A DNA stretch of 22,446 bases from an uncultured bacterium (GCA_949284575.1 CASDWO010000074.1:1-22446), one strand, 5' to 3'; counted from the first letter of the stretch, positions 2,790 through 15,533 are shown. The notes: generated by a model not told the origin, from the letters alone. A program made the numbers and translations.

Positions 2790-4571
2790 ATGGTTAGTAA
2801 AATTAATAATTTAGTTAAAGATAAGAAAAAAGTAATTATTGCTTTTGTTATCTTAATTATTTTGATAGCAGCTCTTTATTTTTCATATGCTTGGTTAAGA
2901 ACTGTGTTATATGGAGAAAAAGATGTACAATTAATTGTAGGAGATATCGATTTAGTTTTAGATGAATCTAATACTGAAGGAATTCAACTTGTTAATGTTA
3001 TTCCTACTTATGATGAAGAAGGTAGAATGAATGAACCTTATAAATTTTCATTAGAAAATAAGAGTGATATTCCATTATATTTTACTTTATCTTTAGTTGA
3101 TGATGAGGAAGCTTTAGAATCTTGTCAAACTACAGATGGAGGAGCTTGTGAGTTATTAGATGGTAGGGATATTAGATATGATTTACAACTAGATGGAGAG
3201 ACATTTACAGGAACTTTATCAGATTCTTATATGGTAAGTTATGGAATTATTGATGCTCATGAAAAATTAGATGGAGAACTAAAGATATGGCTTAATATTA
3301 ATGCTACTAGCGAAGCGATGGGAAAAGTATTTTTAGGAAAATTAAAAGTATTTGCTTCTCAACAAGTAGATGAAGATTTTGTTCAAGGTAATGATGCTGC
3401 TAATCCTCCAGTAATGGATGATAATATGATTGCTATTAAACATGATGGGTATAACTGGGTTAAGACAGATATAGATAATGGTTGGTATAATTATGATATG
3501 CAAATATGGCCTAATGCTGTAACTGTTAAGAGTGATAAGTTAGCAGAATACCAAAGTGCAGGAGTAGGTACTGTAATAAATATGGATGATGTAGAAACTA
3601 TGTGGGTATGGATACCAAGATATAGTTATACAATAGCTAGTGAGAATGGAAGTACATATTATGGAAAAAAAGGGACTTATTTAACGACGACGCCAACAGC
3701 TGCTTTACCGGGAGAAATAGATGTTAAGTTTATTAAAACAACAGAAAAGGATGAAGGAACAGCAAGATATTTAGCTACAGAAGAGCCTAAAAATTACCGA
3801 ACACCTGATGCGTTTACATTTAATGGTGAAGAGTTAGATGGAATATGGGTAGGAAAATTTGAGACAAGTAGTAGTAATCCTGAATTAGTAAATGGAGGAG
3901 GAAATACTACAAGTTTAGATCCGATGATTAAGCCAAATGTAACAAGTTGGAGAAGTATAAATGTAAGCAATATATATAATGTGGGATTGAAGGTAAGTGC
4001 TGAAGGAAATAGATATGGCTTTAGTACAAATATGAATTCTCATGCTATGAAGAATACAGAATGGGCTGCAGTTGCCTATTTATCACAAAGTAAATATGGA
4101 AAATTAGGAAATCAAAACTTTAGTGGAGCAAATAAGGAAGTATATCAAAATAAAAGTGATTTATATATAACAGGATGTAGTTATGGAAGTCCAAGTAATT
4201 CTAATGAAGATTATGGATGTCAATATACATACGATAACAACGTAAGAGATGAGAATGGAATGATAGGAAGAGGAGTAGGAGCCTCAACGACTGGAACAAT
4301 CTATGGTATTTATGATATGAGTGGAGGAGCATGGGAATATGTCTTGGCCAACTATAATGATATTATAGCAAATAGTGGCTTTACTGAAATGCCTCCAGTA
4401 CAGTATTATGATAAATATACGACAGATAATATTTTAACAGCATGTAATGGAAATGAGTGTTTGGGTCATAATTTATCAGAAACACGAGGATGGTATAACG
4501 ATGCACAGACATTTGTCAACGCTGAATATCCATGGTTGGTGCGCGGCGGTGGCTGTCCATTGGTCGTGTGA
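2790..4571 (+). CDS. DGR target protein: N-terminal signal anchor, large extracytoplasmic region, C-terminal FGE-sulfatase/C-type-lectin-like domain. It appears truncated inside its VR.
   Basis: 593 aa. TM segment VIIAFVILIILIAALYF. C-terminal signatures typical of DGR CLec/FGE targets: NTEWAAVAYL, GIYDMSGGAWEYV, WLVRGG. The ORF stops at TGA-TAA (4569-4574) inside the VR, before the conserved SFRLV strand, which lies in another frame. Confidence 0.85.
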   Translation: MVSKINNLVKDKKKVIIAFVILIILIAALYFSYAWLRTVLYGEKDVQLIVGDIDLVLDESNTEGIQLVNVIPTYDEEGRMNEPYKFSLENKSDIPLYFTLSLVDDEEALESCQTTDGGACELLDGRDIRYDLQLDGETFTGTLSDSYMVSYGIIDAHEKLDGELKIWLNINATSEAMGKVFLGKLKVFASQQVDEDFVQGNDAANPPVMDDNMIAIKHDGYNWVKTDIDNGWYNYDMQIWPNAVTVKSDKLAEYQSAGVGTVINMDDVETMWVWIPRYSYTIASENGSTYYGKKGTYLTTTPTAALPGEIDVKFIKTTEKDEGTARYLATEEPKNYRTPDAFTFNGEELDGIWVGKFETSSSNPELVNGGGNTTSLDPMIKPNVTSWRSINVSNIYNVGLKVSAEGNRYGFSTNMNSHAMKNTEWAAVAYLSQSKYGKLGNQNFSGANKEVYQNKSDLYITGCSYGSPSNSNEDYGCQYTYDNNVRDENGMIGRGVGASTTGTIYGIYDMSGGAWEYVLANYNDIIANSGFTEMPPVQYYDKYTTDNILTACNGNECLGHNLSETRGWYNDAQTFVNAEYPWLVRGGGCPLVV

Positions 4572-4645
4572 TAATTTGATGTTTTTTTTTTACTCTATTT
4601 TTTGGGGTGGTGCTTGCTCGTTCCGCCTCGTGATGAGCGTGACTA
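4532..4645 (+). repeat. cassette C1: expressed-site variable region (VR) with 3' IMH-like GC block
   Basis: GCGCGGCGGT at 4541-4550, 68-nt core, CGTTCCGCCTCGTGAT at 4619-4634. The core has 0 Asn codons, is T-rich, and holds a T10 tract at 4582-4591. It is homologous to 11 downstream cassettes. Confidence 0.85.
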
Positions 4646-4658
4646 GCCCGTAGGGCTA
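4644..4658 (+). promoter_or_regulatory. GC-rich hairpin immediately 3' of the VR/IMH (candidate DGR target-recognition hairpin)
   Basis: TAGCCC (4644-4649), loop GTA, GGGCTA (4653-4658). It is present only after C1 and after none of the intergenic cassettes. Its position matches the hairpin/cruciform that follows the IMH in the Bordetella phage paradigm. Confidence 0.55.
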
Positions 4659-4732
4659 AACTCTTGGGCACAAACAAAATAAGAAGGTTAAAAATAGAGA
4701 AAGAAAGAATATTGTCAAATTATTCGATAATA

Positions 4733-4772
4733 GCCTCGGCGCCCTCTTTTTTAGCGACGAGGCGTTTTTTTT
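4733..4772 (+). terminator. intrinsic terminator downstream of the target gene
   Basis: GCCTCG (4733-4738) pairs with CGAGGC (4758-4763), extended by CGC/GCG pairs, followed by T8 (4765-4772). Confidence 0.6.
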
Positions 4773-4783
4773 GAAACTAAAAT

Positions 4784-4815
4784 GATCAAGGTCCTGATTT
4801 TTCAGGGCCTTGATC
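4784..4815 (+). terminator. second strong stem-loop (terminator-like)
   Basis: GATCAAGGTCCTGA (4784-4797), loop TTTT, TCAGGGCCTTGATC (4802-4815): 14 bp with one G-T pair. It is followed by TAATTTTTAATTT, which is not a clean U-tract. Confidence 0.4.
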
Positions 4816-5183
4816 TAATTTTTAATTTATAATTTTCTTTTTGCTTGTTCCATATATTGGTGAGATTTTCTATAGTAAGGTAAATCTTTAAATTAAACTT
4901 TTTCTTTATATGGTTTTATTGTAATATTTGTATGTTCTTGGATTTTTATTTGATATATTTTTTTAAAACTCTTATTTAGAACTGTTTTGTTTCTAATATT
5001 TAATTTTTCTATACTTATTAATTATATTAGCTGATAGTAAAAAATGGAAAAAATTGTATTTGATTTTTATTGTTTAAATTTTATAAAATTTAATTGTCAT
5101 CTATATAGATGACAGGGATTAGGTCAAAATGCTTATGTATTTTCGTTGGATTAGTACTCTTTTTGTTAAGAGACTTTTCTTAT

Positions 5184-5296
5184 ATGGTTGGTGCGCGGCG
5201 GTGGCTGTCCATTGGTCGTGTGATAATTTGATGTTTTTTTTTACTCTATTTTTTGGGGTGGTACTTGCTCGTTCCGCCTCGTGATGAGCGTGACTA
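5184..5296 (+). repeat. cassette C2: near-identical intergenic twin of the expressed VR
   Basis: 113 nt against the 114 nt of C1. The only differences are T9 (5234-5242) against T10, and A5263 against G4612. In frame it reads RGGGCPLVV**FDVFFFYSIFWGGTCSFRLVMSVTMM*. An in-frame TAA lies 7 codons upstream. The 3' flank switches to the cassette-type spacer. Confidence 0.85.
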
Positions 5297-5514
5297 TGAT
5301 GTGATTATAGTTTAAGTTATTACTTATGTAATAAAAAATTTAATATCCTAGAGACTTAATTCCTACTTTTTTAAGTAAACTTATAATATGATGATGGGTA
5401 AGTAGTTAATTTGGGCGAAAATCAAAAATCATAGGGCAAGTACCTCTTGCCTTTTTTACTTTAGTGTTTTATTTTATATATGCGGGAGAAGTTTAATTTG
5501 TTTTTTTAGTTGTT

Positions 5515-5619
5515 GCGCGGCGGTGGTTATAATAATGACACTAATACCGGTGTTTTCTATTTCGATCATGCGGTTGAGTATGGTTCTACAGGTGTTAATG
5601 TGTCGTTCCGCCTCGTGAT
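5515..5619 (+). repeat. cassette C3 (26-codon core)
   Basis: Translates RGG-GYNNDTNTGVFYFDHAVEYGSTGVNV-SFRLVIGDY... with 4 Asn. TAG lies two codons upstream of the Arg codon. 3' class is ATAGGAGAC. Confidence 0.85.
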
Positions 5620-5836
5620 AGGAGACTACAATATAATTTTATTTAAGTTATTGCTATTTAGTAATAAAAAATATTTATTGTAGAACTTTTTCCTTTTTAC
5701 TTTAGTAAATAAAATAATGAAGTACTATTTTTCTAGGTAGTAAATACTGAACACTAGAAAAATATATTGTTGTTTGTAATACTTGTTTATGATAAATTTT
5801 ATGTAGGGAGAAGTTAATTTAGTTTTTCTAGTTGGT

Positions 5837-5941
5837 GCGCGGCGGTAGCTATAACGATAATACTGGTGCAGGTATGTTCAACTTTAATCGTACTAATACT
5901 TTAGGAGTTGGTAGTAATAATCATTCGTTCCGCCTCGTGAT
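5837..5941 (+). repeat. cassette C4 (26-codon core)
   Basis: RGG-SYNDNTGAGMFNFNRTNTLGVGSNNH-SFRLVI* with 7 Asn. TAG lies two codons upstream. 3' class is ATTTGAGAC. Confidence 0.85.
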
Positions 5942-6160
5942 TTGAGACTACAATATAGTTTTATTTAAGTTATTGCTATTTAGTAATAAAAAATATTTAT
6001 TGTAGAACTTTTTCCTTTTTACTTTGGTAAATAAATTAAAGAAGTATTATTTTTCTAGTTAGTAAATAGTGAACTCTAGAAAAATATATTGTTGTTGATA
6101 ATATTTGTTTATGATAAATTTGATGTAGGGGAGAAGTTTAATTTGTGTTTTTTAGTTGTT

Positions 6161-6265
6161 GCGCGGCGGTGGTTATAACAATGCTACTAATGCAGGTATG
6201 TTTTATTTCAATAACAGTAATATTACTGGTGGAGCTAATATCGATAGATCGTTCCGCCTCGTGAT
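6161..6265 (+). repeat. cassette C5 (26-codon core)
   Basis: RGG-GYNNATNAGMFYFNNSNITGGANIDR-SFRLVIGDY... with 7 Asn. TAG lies two codons upstream. Confidence 0.85.
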
Positions 6266-6481
6266 AGGAGACTACAATATAGTTTTATTTAAGTTATTAC
6301 TTATGTAATAAAAAATATTTATTGTAGAAACTTTTTCCTTTTTACTTTGGTAAATAAAATAATGAAGTACTATTTTTCTAGTTAGTAAATAATGAACACT
6401 GGAAAAATATATTGTTGTTTGTAATGTTTGTTTATGATAAATTTGATGTAGGGAGAAGTTAATTTTGTTTTTCTAGTTGGG

Positions 6482-6589
6482 GCGCGGCGGTAACTATAAT
6501 TCTGGTGGTGCCATTGCAGGTGTGTTTTATTTCAATAATAGTAATATTACTGGTGAAGCTAATATCAATAGATCGTTCCGCCTCGTGAT
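6482..6589 (+). repeat. cassette C6 (27-codon core)
   Basis: RGG-NYNSGGAIAGVFYFNNSNITGEANINR-SFRLVI* with 7 Asn. TAG lies two codons upstream. The 3' half is nearly identical to C5. Confidence 0.85.
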
Positions 6590-6814
6590 TTGAGACTACG
6601 ATATAAGATTATTTAAGTTATTACTTGTGTAATAAAAAATATTTATCATAGAAACTTTTTCCTTTTTACGAGTAGTATTAGTAAATAAAATAATGAAGTA
6701 CTATTTTTCTAGTTAGTAAATACTGAATACTAGAAAAATAAAATATTGTTAATAGATTTTCTTTATGATAAATTTTATGTAGGGGAGAAGTTAATTTTGT
6801 TTTTTTAGGTTGTT

Positions 6815-6913
6815 GCGCGGCGGTAGTTATATTAATTCTAATGCAGGTATGTTTTATTTCAATATTAACGTAGCTGGCAATGCAAATAGTAATGGCTCGT
6901 TCCGCCTCGTGAT
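6815..6913 (+). repeat. cassette C7 (24-codon core)
   Basis: RGG-SYINSNAGMFYFNINVAGNANSNG-SFRLVIGDY... with 7 Asn. An in-frame TAA lies 8 codons upstream. Confidence 0.85.
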
Positions 6914-7133
6914 AGGAGACTACAATATAGTTTTATTTAAGTTATTACTATATTGGTAATAAAAAATATTTATTGTAGAGACTTTTTCCTTTTTACTTTG
7001 GTAAATAAAATAATGAAGTATTATTTTTCTGGTTAGTAATTAGTGAACACTAGAAAAATATGATGTTGTTAATATTAATTATTTATGATAATTTTAATAT
7101 TGGGAAAAACTTTAAATTATTTTTTGCGTTATT

Positions 7134-7232
7134 ACGCGGCGGTAACTATAACAATAATACTAATGCAGGTGTGTTTAACTTTAATCATGTTGATGGTAAT
7201 ACTAATATTAATTGGTCGTTCCGCCTCGTGAT
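7134..7232 (+). repeat. cassette C8 (24-codon core, most Asn-rich)
   Basis: RGG-NYNNNTNAGVFNFNHVDGNTNINW-SFRLVI* with 10 Asn. The 5' block is ACGCGGCGGT. The leader variant is GGGAAAAACTT. An in-frame ATG at 7060 gives at most a 58-aa ORF (7060-7236). Confidence 0.85.
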
Positions 7233-7450
7233 TTGAGACTATGATATGAGATTGTTTAAGTTATTACTATATTAGTAATAAAAAATATTTATCATAGAAG
7301 TTTTTTCCTTTTTACTTTGGTAAATAAAATAATGAAGTACTATTTTTCTAGTCAGTAATTAGTGAACACTAGAAAAATATAGTGTTGTTAATAGTATCTA
7401 TTTATGATAATTTTAATATAGGGAGAAGTTATATTTATTATTTTGTTATT

Positions 7451-7549
7451 GCGCGGCGGTGGTTTTAATAATACGACTAATGCAGGTGTTTTCAACTTTG
7501 GTAACACTCTTGGTAATGGTGACAGCAATAATTCGTTCCGCCTCGTGAT
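7451..7549 (+). repeat. cassette C9 (24-codon core), unit with truncated spacer
   Basis: RGG-GFNNTTNAGVFNFGNTLGNGDSNN-SFRLVI* with 8 Asn. The next cassette follows after only 219 bp. The spacer lacks the CTTTTTCC segment and the TTTTTCTAG/CTAGAAAAA hairpin. Confidence 0.85.
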
Positions 7550-7669
7550 TTGAGACTATGATATAAGATTGTTTAAGAAGTTATTACCTATGTAAAAAAT
7601 TTATTGTTAATAATACCTATTTATGTTAATTTTTATATAGGGGAAAGTTAATTTTGTTTTTTAGTTGTT

Positions 7670-7768
7670 GCGCGGCGGTAACTATAATAATTCTAATGCA
7701 GGTATGTTTTATTTCAATACCTGGAATATTGGTAATACTAGTATTAATGGCTCGTTCCGCCTCGTGAT
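7670..7768 (+). repeat. cassette C10 (24-codon core)
   Basis: RGG-NYNNSNAGMFYFNTWNIGNTSING-SFRLVI* with 8 Asn. TAG lies two codons upstream. The 5' half is nearly identical to C7. Confidence 0.85.
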
Positions 7769-7992
7769 TTGAGACTACGATATAGTTTTATTTAAATTAT
7801 TACTTATGTAATAAAAAATATTTATCATAGAAACTTTTTCCTTTTTACGAGCAGTATTAGTGAATAAAATAATGAAGTACTATTTTTCTAGTTAGTAATT
7901 AGTGAACACTAGAAAAATATAGTGTTGTTAATAGTATCTATTTATGATAATTTTAATATAGGGAAAAGGTAAATGTATTTTAGTTGGTTGGT

Positions 7993-8091
7993 GCGCGGCG
8001 GTGTATTTAGTAATAATACTGATGTTGGTATTTTCTACTTTAGTTATACTATTGGTGGTGGTAGCATCTTTAGTTCGTTCCGCCTCATGAT
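7993..8091 (+). repeat. cassette C11 (24-codon core, adenine/Asn-poor, VR-like flanks)
   Basis: RGG-VFSNNTDVGIFYFSYTIGGGSIFS-SFRLMMKDY... with only 2 Asn. The 5' flank GGTTGGTGCGCGG matches the VR. The 3' block is the variant CGTTCCGCCTCATGATGAAAGAC, where the VR has ...GTGATGAGCGTGAC. An in-frame ATG at 7973 gives at most a 53-aa ORF. Confidence 0.85.
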
Positions 8092-8282
8092 GAAAGACTA
8101 CGATATAGTTTTATTTAAGTTATTACTTATGTAATAAAAAATATTTATCATAGAAACTTTTTCCATTTTACGAACGGTATTAGTAAATAAATTAAAGAAG
8201 TATTATTTTTCTAGTTAGTAGATAGTGAATACTAGAAAAATAAAATATTGTTAATAATATCTATTTATGATAATTTTGATAT

Positions 8283-8566
8283 AGGGAGAAGTTATATTTA
8301 TTATTTTGTTTTGCGCGGCGGTAGCTATAATGCGACTTCTAATGCAGGTGTGTTTAATTTCAATACTTGGAACAATGGTAATGCTAATTCTAATGGATCG
8401 TTCCGCCTCGTGATTTGAGACTACAATATAGTTTTATTTAAGTTATTGCTATTTAGTAATAAAAAATATTTATTGTAGAGACTTTTTCCTTTTTACGAGC
8501 AGTATTAGTAAATAAAATAAAGAAGTACTATTTTTCTAGTTAGTAAATAGTGAATACTAGAAAAAT
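8283..8566 (+). ncRNA. candidate DGR template RNA unit (leader, TR-like core, structured spacer) adjacent to avd
   Basis: Leader AGGGAGAAGTT (8283-8293) can pair with GACTTTTTCCT (8480-8490) and so enclose the core. The nested CTACAATA/TATTGTAG and TTATTGCTA/TAGTAATAA hairpins are present, as is the terminal hairpin ATTTTTCTAG (8530-8539) / CTAGAAAAAT (8557-8566). The same architecture repeats in most units. Transcription is not demonstrated. Confidence 0.45.
8313..8414 (+). repeat. cassette C12 (25-codon core), positional candidate for a canonical TR next to avd
   Basis: RGG-SYNATSNAGVFNFNTWNNGNANSNG-SFRLVI* with 9 Asn. It is the last unit, and its spacer runs directly into the avd RBS. Confidence 0.85.
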
Positions 8567-8587
8567 AGTGGATGAGGAGTGATAACT

Positions 8588-8944
8588 ATGGATGATTTAG
8601 AAGGATTAGTTATTTATAAACAATATGTTGAACTTATTTATTATACTCTTTCTATTTTACTTAAATATCCTAAATCTGAAAGATTTTCTTTAGCTCAAGA
8701 TATTAAAAATACTACTTATGCAGGACTTAAAGATATTATTTATGCTCAAAAAGAATATGATAAGAAAAAGAGACTTTCTTATTTAAATGAACTTGATGCT
8801 AATTTAAAAATAGTTAAAGTTTTGATTAGAGTTTCTCATAAGAAAAAATATATTACTTCAAAAAATTATACAGCTTGGAGTAAGAAAATTGCTAATATTT
8901 CTAATCTTAATGGAGGTTGGATTAAATCATGCCTCATACGATAA
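8588..8944 (+). CDS. avd: DGR accessory variability determinant (Avd, four-helix-bundle family)
   Basis: About 118 aa, basic and helical, with the pattern typical of Avd / 23S-rRNA-IVS-like proteins (YKQYVELIYYT...KYPKSERFSLAQDI...LDANLKIVKVLIRVSHKKKYI). GAGGAG at 8574-8579 precedes ATG 8588; the ORF track starts at GTG 8579. It overlaps the RT start by 16 nt. Confidence 0.85.
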   Translation: MDDLEGLVIYKQYVELIYYTLSILLKYPKSERFSLAQDIKNTTYAGLKDIIYAQKEYDKKKRLSYLNELDANLKIVKVLIRVSHKKKYITSKNYTAWSKKIANISNLNGGWIKSCLIR

Positions 8945-9993
8945 GAAATGCTTATTTGAAACATTTAACTATAGAGTCATTAATTGAAGCTCATGAGAGG
9001 GCTAGTAAGACAAAGAGATATTCCAAAGAAGTATTAAAATTTGAAATTGATCTTGAGAGTAATATAGTTAATTTATATAAGAAATTAAAAAATGGGACAT
9101 ATAAAATGGGAAAATATCGAGAATTTAAGATATTTGAGCCTAAAGAGAGGATAATTAGATCTTTACCTTATGTTGATAGAATTGTTCATCAGTGGTATGT
9201 TCATGAGTTTATAAAACCTTATGTTATACCTAGGTTTATTGTTGATTCTTATGCTTGTATAGACGGAAGAGGAACTCATAAAGCGGTTGATAGGATTCAA
9301 GCTTATATGCAAAATATGAAAAATAAATATGGTACTTACTATATAGTAAAATGTGATATTAAGGGATTCTTTTATAATATAGATAAAGATGTATTATTAA
9401 ATATTATGTTAAAATTTATTAAAGATGAGAAATTAATTTGGCTTACTAAAGAGTTTATTTATGGAGATGAAGATGAGATTGGATTGCCAATTGGTAATTA
9501 TACTTCACAATTTTTTGCTAATATTTATATGAACGAGCTTGATCATTATGCTAAAGAAGAATTGAAACTTAAGTATTATGTTAGATATATGGATGATTTT
9601 GTGTTTTTGGTTAAAACAAAAGAAGATGCTAGGAAATATATGGAACTTATTGCAGTTTTTCTAAAAGAAAAGTTACATATTCAATTGAATCATAAGAGTG
9701 GATATTATCCTAATAAAATGGGCCTTGATTTTTGTGGATTTCGTATTTATGAGAGTTATCGGTTACTTAGAAAGAGAAGTATTAAGAAAATAAAAAGAAA
9801 GATTAGAAAGTGGAATGAATTGTATTCTCATAATTTGTTAGATTTAGAGAAAACAATTTTAGAATGGAATTCTTGGCTTGGACATAGTTCTCATGCTAAG
9901 TGTTATAAATTGCAATGGGATATGTATAATAGGATTCTTTTTAAAGAGCATTTGAAGAAACCTTATGTGGAGACTTATGGACGAATATTATAG
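8929..9993 (+). CDS. DGR reverse transcriptase
   Basis: 354 aa. RT motifs include IVKCDIKGFFYNID, the DGR-typical LPIGNYTSQFFANIYMNELD (the SQ motif) and YVRYMDDFVF (YMDD). The size is compact with no maturase or endonuclease domains, and it is translationally coupled to avd. Confidence 0.93.
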   Translation: MPHTIRNAYLKHLTIESLIEAHERASKTKRYSKEVLKFEIDLESNIVNLYKKLKNGTYKMGKYREFKIFEPKERIIRSLPYVDRIVHQWYVHEFIKPYVIPRFIVDSYACIDGRGTHKAVDRIQAYMQNMKNKYGTYYIVKCDIKGFFYNIDKDVLLNIMLKFIKDEKLIWLTKEFIYGDEDEIGLPIGNYTSQFFANIYMNELDHYAKEELKLKYYVRYMDDFVFLVKTKEDARKYMELIAVFLKEKLHIQLNHKSGYYPNKMGLDFCGFRIYESYRLLRKRSIKKIKRKIRKWNELYSHNLLDLEKTILEWNSWLGHSSHAKCYKLQWDMYNRILFKEHLKKPYVETYGRIL

Positions 9994-10035
9994 TTTTAAT
10001 AAGTTCTTTCTTATTAATGAAAGAGGGTAAGTATT

Positions 10036-10326
10036 ATGGATATATATAAAAAGAGTAGGGGTATTTTTATTGTAAATATAGCAATTATATTATTTGTATT
10101 ATTGGTTTTAAGTCCTAATCTTCTGTTTGTTTTTGAGTTTATTATTGATATATTTGTATTATTTCTAACTTTACGTCTTATAAATGATAATATTTTTGTA
10201 TATAATGAGAAATTAAAAAAAGTAACAGTAATTTTTACAATATTTATTATAGGCTATTGTTTGTTATTGTACTTTAAAAATTTTCATCCTTTCTTTTTGG
10301 TGATTACTTTTCTTAGATATATGTAA
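10036..10326 (+). CDS. small hydrophobic membrane protein, unknown function
   Basis: 96 aa with about three predicted TM stretches (IFIVNIAIILFVLLVL, FIIDIFVLFLTL, IFTIFIIGYCLLLYF). No recognisable family. It could be a spurious AT-rich ORF. Confidence 0.35.
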   Translation: MDIYKKSRGIFIVNIAIILFVLLVLSPNLLFVFEFIIDIFVLFLTLRLINDNIFVYNEKLKKVTVIFTIFIIGYCLLLYFKNFHPFFLVITFLRYM

Positions 10327-10396
10327 TTTTTTTTAGCTTTTTTAGAAGCAATTTTTATAGTTAAGGGCATGTTAAAGAGAAAATAATAAAAATATA

Positions 10397-10426
10397 TTGA
10401 CAATTAGTTGGAGATGATGTTATATT
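10397..10426 (+). promoter_or_regulatory. candidate str-operon promoter
   Basis: TTGACA (10397-10402), 18-nt spacer with TG at 10418-10419, then TATATT (10421-10426). It lies about 100 nt upstream of rpsL. Confidence 0.55.
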
Positions 10427-10447
10427 ATCTATGCTGGTTTAAATTTG

Positions 10448-10466
10448 GTTTTGCTTCGGGCAAAAC
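10448..10466 (+). promoter_or_regulatory. stem-loop in the rpsL 5' leader
   Basis: GTTTTGC (10448-10454), loop TTCGG, GCAAAAC (10460-10466), followed by TTTATTT. It could be a leader structure or attenuator. Function is unknown. Confidence 0.3.
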
Positions 10467-10527
10467 TTTATTTAGAACTAAAAATGATACACCTGGATAT
10501 GTGTAAAGAAAGGAGCGAGAAATTACA

Positions 10528-10941
10528 ATGCCTACAGTGAATCAATTAGTACATAAAGGTAGAGGTAAGAAAGTTCGTAAGAGTAAATCTCCAGTACTTT
10601 TAGTGGGAGTTAATACAATTAGAAGAAAACAAACAAATAATCCATCTCCTCAAAAACGTGGAGTATGTACTCGTGTTGGTACGAAGACACCTAAGAAACC
10701 AAACTCAGCTTTACGTAAGTATGCACGTGTTCGTTTATCTAATGGTAAGGAAGTAGATACATACATTCCTGGTATTGGACATAACTTACAAGAGCATAGT
10801 GTTGTATTAGTTCGTGGTGGACGTGTTAAGGACTTAATCGGAGTTCGTTATCATATTATTCGTGGCGCACTAGATACAGCAGGAGTTAAGGATAGAAAAC
10901 AAGGCCGTAGTAAATACGGGGCTAAAAAGCCTAAGAAATAA
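10528..10941 (+). CDS. rpsL: 30S ribosomal protein S12
   Basis: 137 aa: MPTVNQL..., [49 protein letters not shown](I)[22 protein letters not shown] lies upstream. Confidence 0.97.
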
Positions 10942-11000
10942 AAACTGTTCTTAAAAACCTAAGAATTAATATGTAATTGGAATTGGAAGGAGGATAAATT

Positions 11001-11468
11001 ATGCGTAAAAGACGTGCTGTTAAAAGAGATATTTTACCAGATCCTATATATAAGTCTAAAACTGTTGCTAAACTTATTAATACAGTTATGCTTGATGGTA
11101 AAAAAGGTGTTGCGCAAACTATCGTTTATGATGCCTTTAATATTGTTAAAGATAAAACTTCAAAAGATTCTTTAGAAGTATTTAATCAAGCGATGGAAAA
11201 TATTAAACCTCTTTTAGAAGTTAAATCTAGAAGAGTAGGTGGAGCTAATTATCAAGTCCCTCAAGAAGTTACTCCAGCAAGAGCTGAAGCTTTAGCTTTA
11301 CGTTGGTTAGTTACTTTTTCAAGAAAACGTGGTGGACGTGGAATGGCTGATAATTTAGCTAGTGAAATTATAGATGCATCTAATGGAACTGGTGCAGCTG
11401 TTAAAAAACGTGAAGATACCCACAGAATGGCTGAAGCTAATAAAGCTTATGCACATTATCGTTGGTAG
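11001..11468 (+). CDS. rpsG: 30S ribosomal protein S7
   Basis: 155 aa: [14 protein letters not shown]..., [26 protein letters not shown]-type C-terminus. RBS GGAAGGAGG. Confidence 0.97.
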
Positions 11469-11480
11469 GAAGGAGTTATT

Positions 11481-13550
11481 ATGGCAAGAGATACGTCTTT
11501 AGAGAAGACAAGAAACTTTGGAATTATGGCTCATATCGATGCTGGTAAGACTACAACAACAGAACGTATTTTGTTCCATGGTGGTAATATCCATAAGATT
11601 GGAGAAACTCATGATGGTGCTAGTCAAATGGACTGGATGGAACAAGAAAAAGAGCGTGGTATTACAATAACAAGTGCAGCTACTACAGTACACTGGAAAA
11701 ATCATCGTTTTAATATAATCGATACTCCAGGACACGTAGACTTTACTATCGAAGTTAGTCGTAGTTTAAGAGTTTTAGATGGTTCTGTAGCTTTGCTTGA
11801 TGCTCAAGCTGGTGTTGAACCTCAAATGGAAACAGTTTGGAGACAAGCTGATGAATTTATGGTACCTAGAATTATTTTTGCTAATAAAATGGGTAAAATG
11901 GGTGCTGACTTTAATTATAGTCTTAAATCAATAAAAGATCGTTTAGGAGTTAATGCTAAACCTATTGAATGGCCAATTGGAGCTGAAGATGATTTCCGTG
12001 GAGTTATTGATTTAGTTACTATGAAAGCAATTGAGTTTGATGGTAAACCTGAAGAGGAAGCTAAGGAAATAGATATTCCTACTGACTTAAAAGATTTAGC
12101 AGAAGAAAAACATGCTGATTTAATTGACAGTGTAGCTGAATTTGATGATGAAATGATGGAAACATATTTAGATGGTGGAGAAGTAACTGTTCCTATGATT
12201 AAACGTGCTATTCGTAAAGGGTGCCTTGCAACTAAGTTCTTCCCAGTTATGTGTGGAGATGCTTTAGGAAATAAAGGTATTAAACCTTTAATGGATGCAG
12301 TTATTGATTATTTACCTAGTCCTTTAGATGTTGAATCAATTAAAGGACATAACTTAAAAGGAGAAGAGGAAGTTCGTCATCCAAGTGATAATGAACCATT
12401 TAGTGCTTTAGCATTTAAAGTTATGACTGATCCTTTTGTTGGACGTTTAACATTCTTTAGAGTTTATTCTGGTCATTTAGCTAGTGGTAGCTATGTACTT
12501 AACTCAACAAAAGATTCTAAAGAAAGAATTGGTCGTATATTACAAATGCATGCTAATAACCGTAAAGAGATTAGTGATGTATATACTGGTGATATAGCGG
12601 CTGCTGTTGGACTTAAGAATACTACTACTGGTGATACATTATGTGATGAAAAGAAACCTATTATCTTAGAGAAACTTATTGTTCCTGAGCCAGTTATTCA
12701 ACTTGCTGTTGAACCTAAATCTAAGGCAGATCAAGATAAGATGGCACTTGCATTACAAAAACTTGCTGAAGAAGATCCAACATTTAAAGTTCATACTGAT
12801 CATGAAACAGGTCAAACTGTTATTGCTGGTATGGGTGAGTTACACCTTGATGTATTAGTTGATCGTATGAAACGTGAATTCCATGTGGAAGCTAATGTTG
12901 GTGCACCACAAGTTGCTTATCGTGAAACTATTAAAGCTAGTGCTGAATGTGAAGGTAAGTATATTAAACAATCTGGTGGTCGTGGACAATATGGTCACGT
13001 TTGGATTAAATTTGAACCAAATCCTGATAAAGGTTATGAATTTGTTGATCAAATCGTAGGTGGTGTTGTTCCTCGTGAATATATTCCTGTTGTTGATAAA
13101 GGTTTACAAGAAGCAATGCAAACTGGTATTTTAGCAGGATATCCTATGATTGATATTAAAGCAACATTATTTGATGGTTCATACCATGATGTAGACTCTA
13201 GTGAAATGGCATTTAAGATTGCAGCGTCTATGGCTTTAAAAGAAGCTAAGAATAAGTGTCAAGCAGTACTTCTTGAACCAATCATGAAAGTTGATGTTAC
13301 AACACCTGATGAATACTTCGGTAATGTTATGGGAGATTTAACTAGTCGTCGTGGTCGTCCACTTGGACAAGAGTCACTTGGAAATGTGGTTAAATTATCA
13401 GCAATGGTTCCACTTTCTGAGATGTTTGGATATGCTACTAACTTACGTAGTAATACTCAAGGTAGAGGTAACTTCGTTATGACATTTGATCATTATGAAG
13501 ATGTACCTAAAAATATTGCTGAAGATATTATTAAAAAGAGTGGAAATTAA
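11481..13550 (+). CDS. fusA: translation elongation factor G
   Basis: 689 aa: G1 [27 protein letters not shown]-like NKMGKMGA, and a C-terminal domain IV/V signature. It sits in the canonical position after rpsG. Confidence 0.97.
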
Positions 13551-13582
13551 TAAGAAACTTTGTTAAAATTAGTTCTAAACAG

Positions 13583-13611
13583 TTGCAAATTTAGTAATTG
13601 TTAGATAAAAT
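13583..13611 (+). promoter_or_regulatory. candidate internal promoter for tuf
   Basis: TTGCAA (13583-13588), 17-nt spacer, TAAAAT (13606-13611), in the fusA-tuf intergenic region. Confidence 0.4.
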
Positions 13612-13646
13612 ATAAATTGTATAAAAAAAAGAGGAGGAAAAATAAT

Positions 13647-14837
13647 ATGGCAAAACAAAAATTTGATCGTACTAAACCACATGTTAATATTGGTACAATC
13701 GGACACGTTGATCATGGTAAAACTACATTAACTGCAGCTATTACTAAATGTTTACATGACAAAAACCCTGCATGGGCTGATTTTACAGATTATGCAAACA
13801 TTGATAAAGCTCCAGAAGAAAGAGAACGTGGTATTACAATTAATACTGCACACGTAGAATACCAAACTGAAAAACGTCATTATGCTCACGTTGACTGCCC
13901 AGGACATGCTGACTATGTTAAAAACATGATTACTGGTGCTGCTCAAATGGATGGTGCAATTCTTGTAATTGCTGCTACTGATGGAGCTATGGCTCAAACT
14001 CGTGAACATATCCTATTATCACGTCAAGTTGGAGTACCTCGTATGGTTGTATTCTTAAATAAATGTGATATGGTTGATGATGAAGAGTTAATTGATTTAG
14101 TTGAAATGGAAGTTCGTGACTTATTAAACGAATATGGATTTGATGGAGATAATACTCCAGTTATTAAGGGTTCAGCTCTTAAAGCTCTTGAAGGAGAAGA
14201 GAAATATGTTAACGCAATCTATGAACTTATGGATGCTGTTGATGAATGGATCCCAACTCCTGAACGTGATACTGATAAACCTTTCTTAATGAGTATTGAA
14301 GATGTATTCACTATCACAGGTCGTGGTACAGTTGTTACTGGACGTGTTGAACGTGGACAATTAAAACTTAACGATGAAGTTGAAATCGTTGGTATCCGTG
14401 ATACTCAAAAGACAGTTGTTACTGGTATCGAAATGTTTAGAAAACAACTTGATACAGCTGAAGCTGGAGATAATGCAGGAGTTTTACTTCGTGGTATTTC
14501 TCGTGAACAAGTTGAACGTGGACAAGTTCTTGCTAAACCTGGTAGTGTTAAACCTCATAGTAAATTTAAAGCTGAAGTTTACGTACTAAGTAAAGAAGAA
14601 GGTGGACGTCATACTCCATTCTTTAGTAACTATCGTCCACAATTCTATTTTAGAACTACTGATGTTACTGGTGTAATCACTTTACCAGAAGGTGTAGAAA
14701 TGGTTATGCCTGGTGATAATGTAACAATGGATGTTGAATTAATTCATCCAATTGCTATTGAAAAAGGTACTAAGTTCTCTATCCGTGAGGGTGGACATAC
14801 TGTTGGTGCTGGTGTTGTTTCTGAAATCGAAGGATAA
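13647..14837 (+). CDS. tuf: translation elongation factor Tu
   Basis: 396 aa from ATG 13647 ([33 protein letters not shown]), preceded by GAGGAGG at 13631-13637. The ORF-track start at 13617 adds an implausible KKKRRKNN extension. Confidence 0.97.
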
Positions 14838-14897: not shown

Positions 14898-15533
14898 ATG
14901 GTGTTACTTATGAAAATAAAAAATATAGTTTTGGGAATAATTGGTATTATTTTGATTGTTATGTTATCTTTCCTTTTAGCAAACTTAATTCATAGTAGTA
15001 ATAATAAAGAGCAAGCAAAGGATGAACAAGAAGAACCAAAATTCTTAATTAATGGTGAAAAAGTTAATTTTGAGACATATAGAGTTGATGGGAAATTCTT
15101 TATAAATGTACCTGATATTTTAACTTCGTTAGATGAAGCTACATTAAAAAATGAGTATAATTATAATAATCGTCCTGAACTTGTTTTTAGAAGTAGTGAT
15201 CTTAAAGAACAGATCTTTATTAATACTACAAATCAAGATATGTTAGATGAAGGATTAGAAGAATATTTAAATAATCTTATAGCTAATCTTACTAATATGG
15301 AAGTGATTGATAGTGGGGTATATCAAAAATATGATAAAACTTTTGCTAAATTAATATCTAAAAATGCTAGTACATATTATAGCTTTAGATATTTTACCAT
15401 TGATAATAAACTAGTAACAATTGAATTTAATGTACCAGTTGATATTTCTTTAGAATGGGAAGAAGTTATTGAAGAAGTAATGGATAGTATTTGTTTTAGT
15501 GAAGATGATATAAAAAAATATTCTAGCGATTAG
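14898..15533 (+). CDS. membrane-anchored hypothetical protein
   Basis: 211 aa with one N-terminal TM helix (IVLGIIGIILIVMLSFLLANLI), then an acidic soluble domain. No recognised family. An alternative start is ATG 14910. Confidence 0.5.
   Translation: MVLLMKIKNIVLGIIGIILIVMLSFLLANLIHSSNNKEQAKDEQEEPKFLINGEKVNFETYRVDGKFFINVPDILTSLDEATLKNEYNYNNRPELVFRSSDLKEQIFINTTNQDMLDEGLEEYLNNLIANLTNMEVIDSGVYQKYDKTFAKLISKNASTYYSFRYFTIDNKLVTIEFNVPVDISLEWEEVIEEVMDSICFSEDDIKKYSSD

Follow-up and report, generated by a model that had tools for sequence, protein, structure and literature searches.

We analysed a 22,446-nucleotide stretch of chromosomal DNA (28% G+C) from an uncultured gut bacterium (GCA_949284575.1, CASDWO010000074.1:1-22446; hereafter the window), in which ~4 kb free of open reading frames (ORFs) separates a gene for a 593-aa protein from avd, encoding the accessory variability determinant, and an overlapping reverse transcriptase (RT) gene. 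There is good reason to believe that the locus is a chromosomal diversity-generating retroelement (DGR) in which one recipient site, the variable region (VR) at the 3' end of the target gene, is served by a tandem library of alternative template repeats (TRs). Judged from the alignments described below, different cassettes of such libraries do rewrite a single VR by adenine-mutagenic homing in relatives of the strain; the named relatives are 'Candidatus Onthousia' and uncultured Bacilli/Tenericutes genomes, metagenome-assembled. Close and more distant relatives alike suggest that the A-rich cassettes of this strain are also active.

The array is defined by two short blocks that bracket every copy. 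The 5' block, GCGCGGCGGT, occurs 12 times, on the + strand, at the start of the VR and of each of the 11 cassettes in Table 1 (chance expectation 0.02), and the 3' block, CGTTCCGCCTCGTGAT, likewise occurs 12 times, from 4619 through 8399 (chance expectation 0). An original prediction, made from the sequence of the window, had proposed 11 further copies of the VR module between the target gene and avd, and all of them were recovered. Across all copies the blocks carry only two single-base mismatches: the 5' block at 7134 reads ACGCGGCGGT, and the 3' block at 8076 has A for G at position 8087 (CTCATGAT vs CTCGTGAT). The latter position, in cassette 10, is polymorphic, being G in assembly L004. 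Successive copies start 317-333 bp apart, with one 219-bp unit (7451 to 7670), as had been described, and Tandem Repeats Finder detects the array with a period of ~323. The cores between the blocks are 67-82 nt long; the predicted range of 22-27 codons is correct, and the predicted 66-81 nt was off by one. The eleven cassettes fall into six lengths. No ORF of at least 60 aa lies entirely inside 4654-8578, in line with the prediction. Shorter ORFs with TTG or ATG starts (35-60 aa) cross the cassettes; we rejected these as separate genes, since they represent the C-terminal frame of the target and many have weak TTG starts. As had also been predicted, the surroundings of the cores are better conserved than the cores themselves, mean pairwise identity between units rising from 68% in the cores to 78.5% in the 65-nt leader and 90.5% in the 150 nt that follow each cassette.

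Other samples have yielded three independent assemblies of this strain, which cover window positions 6006-10471, 7320-10770 and 7558-14224 at 99-99.9% identity. They include 2.6, 1.3 and 1.0 kb of the array, with zero differences in the cassette cores. The cassettes are therefore stable between samples, as would be expected of templates and not of variable regions. Arrays are also present in assemblies of relatives whose record names indicate a long-read assembler (the circular 1.52-Mb OZ006970.1, a second metaFlye genome, and L021). Together with the agreement among independent assemblies, this led us to reject an assembly artefact.

The twelve copies form three classes: the VR (copy 0), an adenine-poor cassette (copy 1), and ten A-rich, open cassettes (copies 2-11). 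Cassettes 2-11 consist of 23-37% adenine and contain 2-10 AAY codons each. All ten are open in the RGG...SFRLV frame of the target, compared with a mean of 1.1 and a maximum of 6 open cores in 2000 shuffles, and a stop can be reached through an adenine change from one codon type only, AGA (cassettes 4 and 5). Immediately 3' of the GC-rich block, these cassettes diverge from the VR, reading TT, AG or GA, then G or A, then AGACTAC. Such features are hallmarks of DGR TRs, and cassettes 2-11 thus appear to be template repeats. The original prediction had treated the eleven copies as one set, which holds for the ten A-rich, open cassettes and fails for the copy at 5193, which is adenine-poor, contains stops and is a near-duplicate of the VR; the special nature of this cassette, and its role as the source of a truncated VR, had been missed. 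Among the open cassettes, cassette 10 is the least A-rich and most T-rich (23% A, 35 T), and may be partly eroded.

Evidence that different cassettes serve one VR comes from relatives. L018, L021 and L022, which belong to one species, are syntenic and have one cassette set in common, made up of five A-rich cassettes and an adenine-poor one. The VR of L018 matches the cassette at 9616 over a tract of 116 nt with 17 A-to-N changes, that of L021 matches the cassette at 12520 over 102 nt with 12 A-to-N changes, and that of L022 matches the cassette at 14928 over 109 nt with 12 A-to-N changes; none of the three has any other change or indel. Pairing these VRs with non-donor cassettes would require indels and 10-32 non-adenine mismatches. 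Adenine-only codon changes suffice to derive 15 of 20 distinct VR proteins of this species from one of the cassettes TRa (7), TRb (5) and TRe (3), whose lengths are of two kinds, 32 and 34 codons. The original prediction had proposed a search for loci with more than two TR-like units; when one genome per species was scanned, many Onthousia-like genomes proved to contain arrays, with up to at least 23 cassettes. In six GTDB species representatives a single cassette matches the VR, the two differing by 5-17 A-to-N changes and 0-1 other mismatches; on contig CALVQK010000020.1, which has 23 cassettes and one VR, the donor is the 17th. Copies from A-rich donors have 19-61% of the donor adenines changed, and substitutions fall only at donor adenines in eight of nine genomes, with a single non-adenine mismatch in the ninth (CALVIV). 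When target proteins were clustered at ≥90% identity, their VRs formed discrete scaffold classes of different lengths, such that VR length varies among near-identical proteins (clusters 1, 3, 4, 5, 9 and 10). These relatives bear out the predicted use of multiple templates to generate variation in length and scaffold. Because mismatches lie at cassette adenines and the cassettes are invariant, information flows from cassette to VR by adenine-mutagenic reverse transcription.

In the mechanism that we propose, the recipient would be the VR, marked by its GC-rich block, an extension resembling the initiation of mutagenic homing (IMH) element, and a hairpin. Each A-rich cassette would lack both a promoter and an ORF and would duplicate the final 22-27 variable codons of the target, with VR-type GC-rich blocks on both sides. 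In this strain, a cassette would be transcribed, RT-Avd would make cDNA from it while misincorporating opposite adenines, and the cDNA would replace the VR through the shared 3' block and IMH and through homology in the 5' block. Variation would arise at two tiers: the choice of cassette would set the scaffold, because cassettes differ in length and at non-adenine positions, and adenine mutagenesis would then vary that scaffold.

The DNA 3' of the templates is consistent with a role in this process. In the ~150-nt flank, CTACAATA and TATTGTAG form an outer helix, TTATTGC and GTAATAA an inner hairpin, and TTTCTAG...CTAGAAA a 3' hairpin that includes UAGUA...GAAUAC; following cassette 11, it directly abuts the avd ribosome-binding site. 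When 28 flanks, taken from the window and from three other genomes, were aligned, three helices with 21 pairs were paired in 98.5% of cells and showed compensatory changes in 6 pairs. By contrast, all three control sets with slid partners were 35-57% paired, and no shuffle reached the observed covariation score. The Rfam model RT-14 (RF02921) matched full-length at equivalent flank positions in the window and three other genomes (8 sites, 4 sources), including the UAGUA...GAAUAC hairpin, but with scores of 29.2-35.4 bits against a gathering score of 48.1, such that membership in RT-14 is not established. The spacer RNA of the phage BPP-1 DGR primes cDNA synthesis (PMC5703328), and by analogy the flank may be its counterpart, recruiting RT-Avd and priming cDNA. 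At cassette 8, ~100 bp of the 3' spacer, including the RT-14-like hairpin, is deleted, and the same deletion is present in assemblies L003 and L004; with most of its spacer lost, cassette 8 may be unable to act as a donor by itself.

The VR of the window has a distinct origin. Its core has only 7 A, contains in-frame TGA and TAA codons, and is one nucleotide out of frame with respect to the 3' block. It agrees with cassette 1 along ~117 nt that begin with ATGGTTGGT and end with GAGCGTGACTA, with differences limited to one position (A in cassette 1, G in the VR) and one extra T in a T-run. No A-rich cassette of the window matches the present VR; we considered whether it could be an A-mutagenised copy of one of them, and each such pairing demands indels and 8-22 non-adenine mismatches. 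The window VR is best interpreted as a copy of cassette 1, which would explain both the early stop of the target, at 4571 rather than 4652, and the fact that the A-rich cassettes align to the VR only with indels and many non-adenine mismatches. With an in-frame VR, the target would extend to the TAG at 4650-4652, ending in SFRLVMSVTSP. Among target homologues of at least 500 aa, 184 of 200 have an intact hypervariable RGG...SFRLV tail, and most of those listed are 613-631 aa long; similar T-rich truncated tails end ~13 of 200 target homologues. Spanning window 4541-5285, a ~117-bp direct repeat made up of the VR and cassette 1 flanks a 0.55-kb segment, within which lie two terminator-like hairpins and a perfect palindrome with an 8-bp stem (5095-5114). 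In L001, the VR continues directly into a cassette-1-type spacer, a junction that reflects either a probable assembly collapse or a true deletion by recombination between the VR and an identical adenine-poor cassette.

On its 3' side, cassette 1 has the extension seen at the VR, GAGCGTGACTA, and beyond this a diverged spacer of the TR type that finishes with a terminator of its own (5433-5453). An orthologous adenine-poor cassette is the first after the target in the window, in L018 and L022, and in at least eight GTDB species representatives. It is marked by its own spacer (...TATCCTAGAGAYYTAATTCCT...), usually has the VR-type 3' extension, and contains 5-8 adenines per 85 nt (window, L001, L018 and L022). 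VRs copied from this cassette were found in the window, CAMMMG010000007 and OZ006970.1, and the copies are identical to the cassette in two genomes. In the complete circular genome OZ006970.1 (loci L039, 368-376 kb, and L048, 1144-1152 kb), the intact target has its own adenine-poor cassette just 3', and the VR-type site of the array locus reproduces the adenine-poor cassette of that array exactly. We could not derive the adenine-poor core of cassette 1 from any present cassette in any frame. Its composition may result from self-homing, since a cassette combining the recipient IMH with a donor spacer could lose adenines over time. The near-faithful copying of adenine-poor cassettes could possibly be due to recombination via longer shared flanks, to unusually faithful homing, or to selection for the null state. 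The truncated target represents a putative 'off' state, which should be reversible because both VR boundary blocks are intact. It is possible, although on balance doubtful, that the locus is a programmed two-tier system that combines scaffold choice (at least 23 templates in relatives) and adenine hypermutation with a selected, near-non-mutable 'null/reset' first cassette, possibly shaped by self-homing, that acts as a reversible off switch for a surface protein; the window would then be in the off state, like ~7% of sampled relatives.

The arrangement of the array resembles silent-cassette systems such as pilE/pilS of Neisseria and vlsE/vls of Borrelia, in which one expression site is accompanied by nearby partial copies that lack promoters and combine conserved borders with variable cores, and in which the outcome is a switch in a segment of a surface protein. 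Those systems operate by recombination without an RT. The original prediction left open whether cassettes reach the target by RT-mediated homing or by gene conversion, and we considered a model in which host recombination acts through the GC-rich blocks, with RT being irrelevant or responsible only for later point mutagenesis. Short homology is available on both sides (blocks of 10 and 16 nt, or ~19 and 27 nt for cassette 1), and the near-identical VR copies of the adenine-poor cassette are as non-mutagenic conversion predicts. However, transfers from A-rich donors carry 5-17 substitutions per event, every one of them at a donor adenine in eight of the nine genomes tested, which conversion does not predict; RecA-type exchange would have very little shared flanking sequence to work with; and each cassette keeps a structured 3' RNA-like element for which conversion has no need. 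Unlike pilE/pilS and vlsE/vls, the locus encodes RT-Avd and the transferred copies have adenine-specific mutations. The faithful copying that characterises silent-cassette systems is absent for A-rich donors, and is approached only for the adenine-poor cassette. We consider conversion an unlikely explanation for the array as a whole, although it may apply to cassette 1; for the A-rich cassettes, the adenine specificity argues that the route is RT-mediated mutagenic homing and not plain gene conversion.

A second alternative, that each cassette serves its own VR elsewhere in the genome such that cassettes do not converge on one VR, has some precedent in surveys of DGRs in which multiple TRs occur together with VRs that correspond to them (PMC6642488). 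In several related genomes there are at least two paralogues of the target, with VRs located on other contigs (L056, L043/L055, L037/L044; L025/L031/L065), and in OZ006970.1 the intact target is 776 kb from the array and RT. Nonetheless, one syntenic VR locus takes three different cassettes across three genomes of one species, and cassettes greatly exceed detectable VRs, with 23 cassettes and one VR on CALVQK010000020.1 and matches to the block pattern at only two loci in OZ006970.1. One-to-one use of cassettes is therefore very improbable. Some of the remote VRs have a different downstream context (...GGACTAAGYGAATTAGAGGCTTGAACG). Finally, the truncated target, the loss of spacer from cassette 8, the lower adenine content of cassettes 2 and 10, and one frameshifted cassette each in CALVQK and CAWVIV could suggest decaying, neutral amplification of a TR unit or of target 3' ends, with only the avd-proximal cassette or none active, but this is scarcely credible and largely refuted for the clade, given ten open cores against a shuffle maximum of 6, codon choice that avoids stops, conserved blocks and structured flank, similar cassette types that persist across species with RTs just 71-81% identical, and the use of donors distant from avd.

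Several observations weigh against a DGR with a library of templates. The only known VR state of this strain derives from the adenine-poor cassette. Adenine-poor transfers show 1 change in ~30 adenines, as compared with 19-61% in ordinary events, and may depend on recombination instead of the RT. Two of the five A-rich cassettes in the L018 species have no counterpart among the sampled VRs, and the remote VR in L056 fails to match any of the five cassettes retrieved for that genome. Cassette-specific promoters are not evident, with 32 promoter-like sites versus 25.9 expected in a scan that is uninformative in such AT-rich DNA. Lastly, a C-type-lectin fold of the target is unconfirmed, the Pfam match being sub-threshold and the AlphaFold model poor.

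Arrays adjoin RTs that are 81% (L013) and 71% (L001) identical to the window RT, and no block-bearing cassettes and no array were found in L006-L009, whose RT is 66% identical; the array is confined to a subclade. In the L018 species, one A-rich cassette of the array lies upstream of the target, and two are cut off by an AAA_14/DUF4143 ATPase gene within the array (L018 13187-14506, likewise in L021 and L022). Templates therefore need not be contiguous or adjoin avd.

The RT contains the motifs YMDD and IGNYTSQ, the latter conforming to IGxxxSQ, which we take to be the DGR signature motif. Its best match among solved structures is 8ub7, 'Reverse transcriptase' (E = 3.5e-46), far better than its matches to group II intron RTs (~1e-19) and retron RTs. 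The RT is of the DGR kind, and both RT and Avd are as in known DGRs, among which that of BPP-1 (mtd VR - avd - TR - brt) is one of the closest known systems, likewise having an RT with the DGR-type motif and a bAvd partner. In both systems the VR comprises the last ~30 codons of the target, TR-VR differences are at TR adenines only (here in relatives), a GC-rich block, an IMH-like element and a hairpin lie 3' of the VR, and structured RNA lies 3' of the TR. For the window itself, the adenine relationship between TR and VR amounts to the single A-to-G difference, plus the 1-nt indel, relative to cassette 1. The position of the VR at the gene's 3' end fits a DGR, as do the apparent GC-rich element, IMH-like element and stem-loop, with a differing sequence at the A-rich cassettes. 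VRs of every related target gene have the same arrangement, with a hairpin of TAGTCC-GTAA-GGACTA or TAGCCC-GTAA-GGGCTA that reflects a compensatory change. In BPP-1, a recipient has a GC element, IMH and stem-loop in that order (PMC5703328), and by these rules 4635-4658 is a putative recipient signal.

The locus does not have the canonical DGR architecture of one TR equal in length to the VR. Whereas BPP-1 has a single, VR-length TR, here there are 10 A-rich templates (22-27 variable codons) and an adenine-poor cassette per VR; the templates are upstream of avd, each with its own copy of a 3' RNA element; and the host DNA is a low-GC chromosome rather than a phage. DGRs with at least two TRs, for example in Stenotrophomonas sp., resemble the locus in having multiple TRs per RT (PMC6642488, PMC11661182), but in those surveys each TR has its own VRs, or extra TRs were filtered as redundancy. 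In one survey, some VRs were matched by at least two TRs, and overlapping TR/VR pairs were removed (PMC11661182); two further large surveys are silent on multiple TRs. Our literature search, which had most subscription journals outside its scope, found no account of tandem, divergent TRs of different lengths that alternately rewrite one VR, nor of an adenine-poor cassette.

The genes of the window are on the + strand, except for clpP (-). Upstream are a DUF3006 gene, clpP, a PRK-family kinase gene and the target; 3' of the ORF-free region follow avd, RT, a small ORF, rpsL, rpsG, fusA and tuf. An alternative genetic code was considered and is unneeded, since table 11 keeps long ORFs intact. The start of avd is the ATG at 8588, the ORF finder beginning at a GTG at 8579 (8579-8944), and the 3' end of avd overlaps the RT start. 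The target has no Pfam match in its present form, and intact homologues match FGE-sulfatase (PF03781, C-type-lectin-like) at 19.3 bits, below the cut-off of 23.3. Sequence and profile searches of the PDB found no related solved structure for the target, and its AlphaFold model (predicted local distance difference test score of 42) is too poor for a structure search. The small ORF directly 3' of RT (10036-10326) encodes 96 aa here, without a Pfam match, and 116 aa in other assemblies of the strain; ORFs of 117-122 aa are nearby in L010 and L013. This ORF may be an unrecognised accessory gene or a remnant. A T-box leader, unrelated to the array, is located in L001 (11140-11325) 5' of a threonyl-tRNA-synthetase-like gene (78 bits; gathering score of 93).

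Table 1. Positions of the target gene, its variable region, the cassettes and the retroelement genes in the window.
Feature	Position	Strand	Description
Target gene	2790-4571	+	From ORF list; present form 593 aa, N-terminal hydrophobic segment, end ...YPWLVRGGGCPLVV, then stop
Variable region (copy 0)	4541-4634	+	5' block 4541-4550, 68-nt core 4551-4618, GC-rich 3' block 4619-4634
VR-specific 3' recognition region (putative)	4635-4658	+	IMH-like GAGCGTGACTA; hairpin TAGCCC-GTA-GGGCTA (4644-4658)
Two terminator-like hairpins 3' of target	~4733-4775, 4784-4815	+	From reading the sequence; scan gives 4784-4815
Cassette 1, adenine-poor 'null' cassette	5193-5285	+	67-nt core with 8 A and 34 T; in-frame TGA and TAA
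Cassette 2	5515-5619	+	Encodes RGGGYNNDTNTGVFYFDHAVEYGSTGVNVSFRLV; 26 core codons
Cassette 3	5837-5941	+	Encodes RGGSYNDNTGAGMFNFNRTNTLGVGSNNHSFRLV; 26 core codons
Cassette 4	6161-6265	+	Encodes RGGGYNNATNAGMFYFNNSNITGGANIDRSFRLV; 26 core codons; core identical in L003
Cassette 5	6482-6589	+	Encodes RGGNYNSGGAIAGVFYFNNSNITGEANINRSFRLV; 27 core codons
Cassette 6	6815-6913	+	Encodes RGGSYINSNAGMFYFNINVAGNANSNGSFRLV; 24 core codons
Cassette 7	7134-7232	+	Encodes RGGNYNNNTNAGVFNFNHVDGNTNINWSFRLV; 24 core codons; 5' block ACGCGGCGGT
Cassette 8	7451-7549	+	Encodes RGGGFNNTTNAGVFNFGNTLGNGDSNNSFRLV; 24 core codons; 219-bp unit, most of 3' spacer deleted
Cassette 9	7670-7768	+	Encodes RGGNYNNSNAGMFYFNTWNIGNTSINGSFRLV; 24 core codons
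Cassette 10	7993-8091	+	Encodes RGGVFSNNTDVGIFYFSYTIGGGSIFSSFRLM; 24 core codons; 23% A
Cassette 11	8313-8414	+	Encodes RGGSYNATSNAGVFNFNTWNNGNANSNGSFRLV; 25 core codons; adjoins avd, the canonical TR position
Structured 3' flank	8415-8566	+	Cassette 11 as example; flank present after cassettes 2-7 and 9-11
avd	8588-8944	+	Accessory variability determinant; Pfam bAvd PF22296, E = 9.5e-24
DGR reverse transcriptase	8929-9993	+	354 aa, overlaps avd; Pfam RVT_1 domain

DGR diversification is usually taught as the use of a single TR scaffold, with variation at adenine-encoded positions only and a constant VR length. A template library would lift the limits of a fixed scaffold and a fixed length, allowing loop length and framework residues to vary in addition to contact residues, and would multiply the reachable sequence space. 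The combination of template choice and mutagenesis has a likeness to vertebrate antibody genes, which combine segment choice with hypermutation. Template arrays would also explain breaks in short-read assemblies at such loci, and the 'overlapping' TR/VR pairs reported by pipelines that assume a single TR, and they offer a natural design for engineered multi-template DGR mutagenesis. Were the adenine-poor cassette functional, it would constitute a phase switch of a new kind inside a retroelement.

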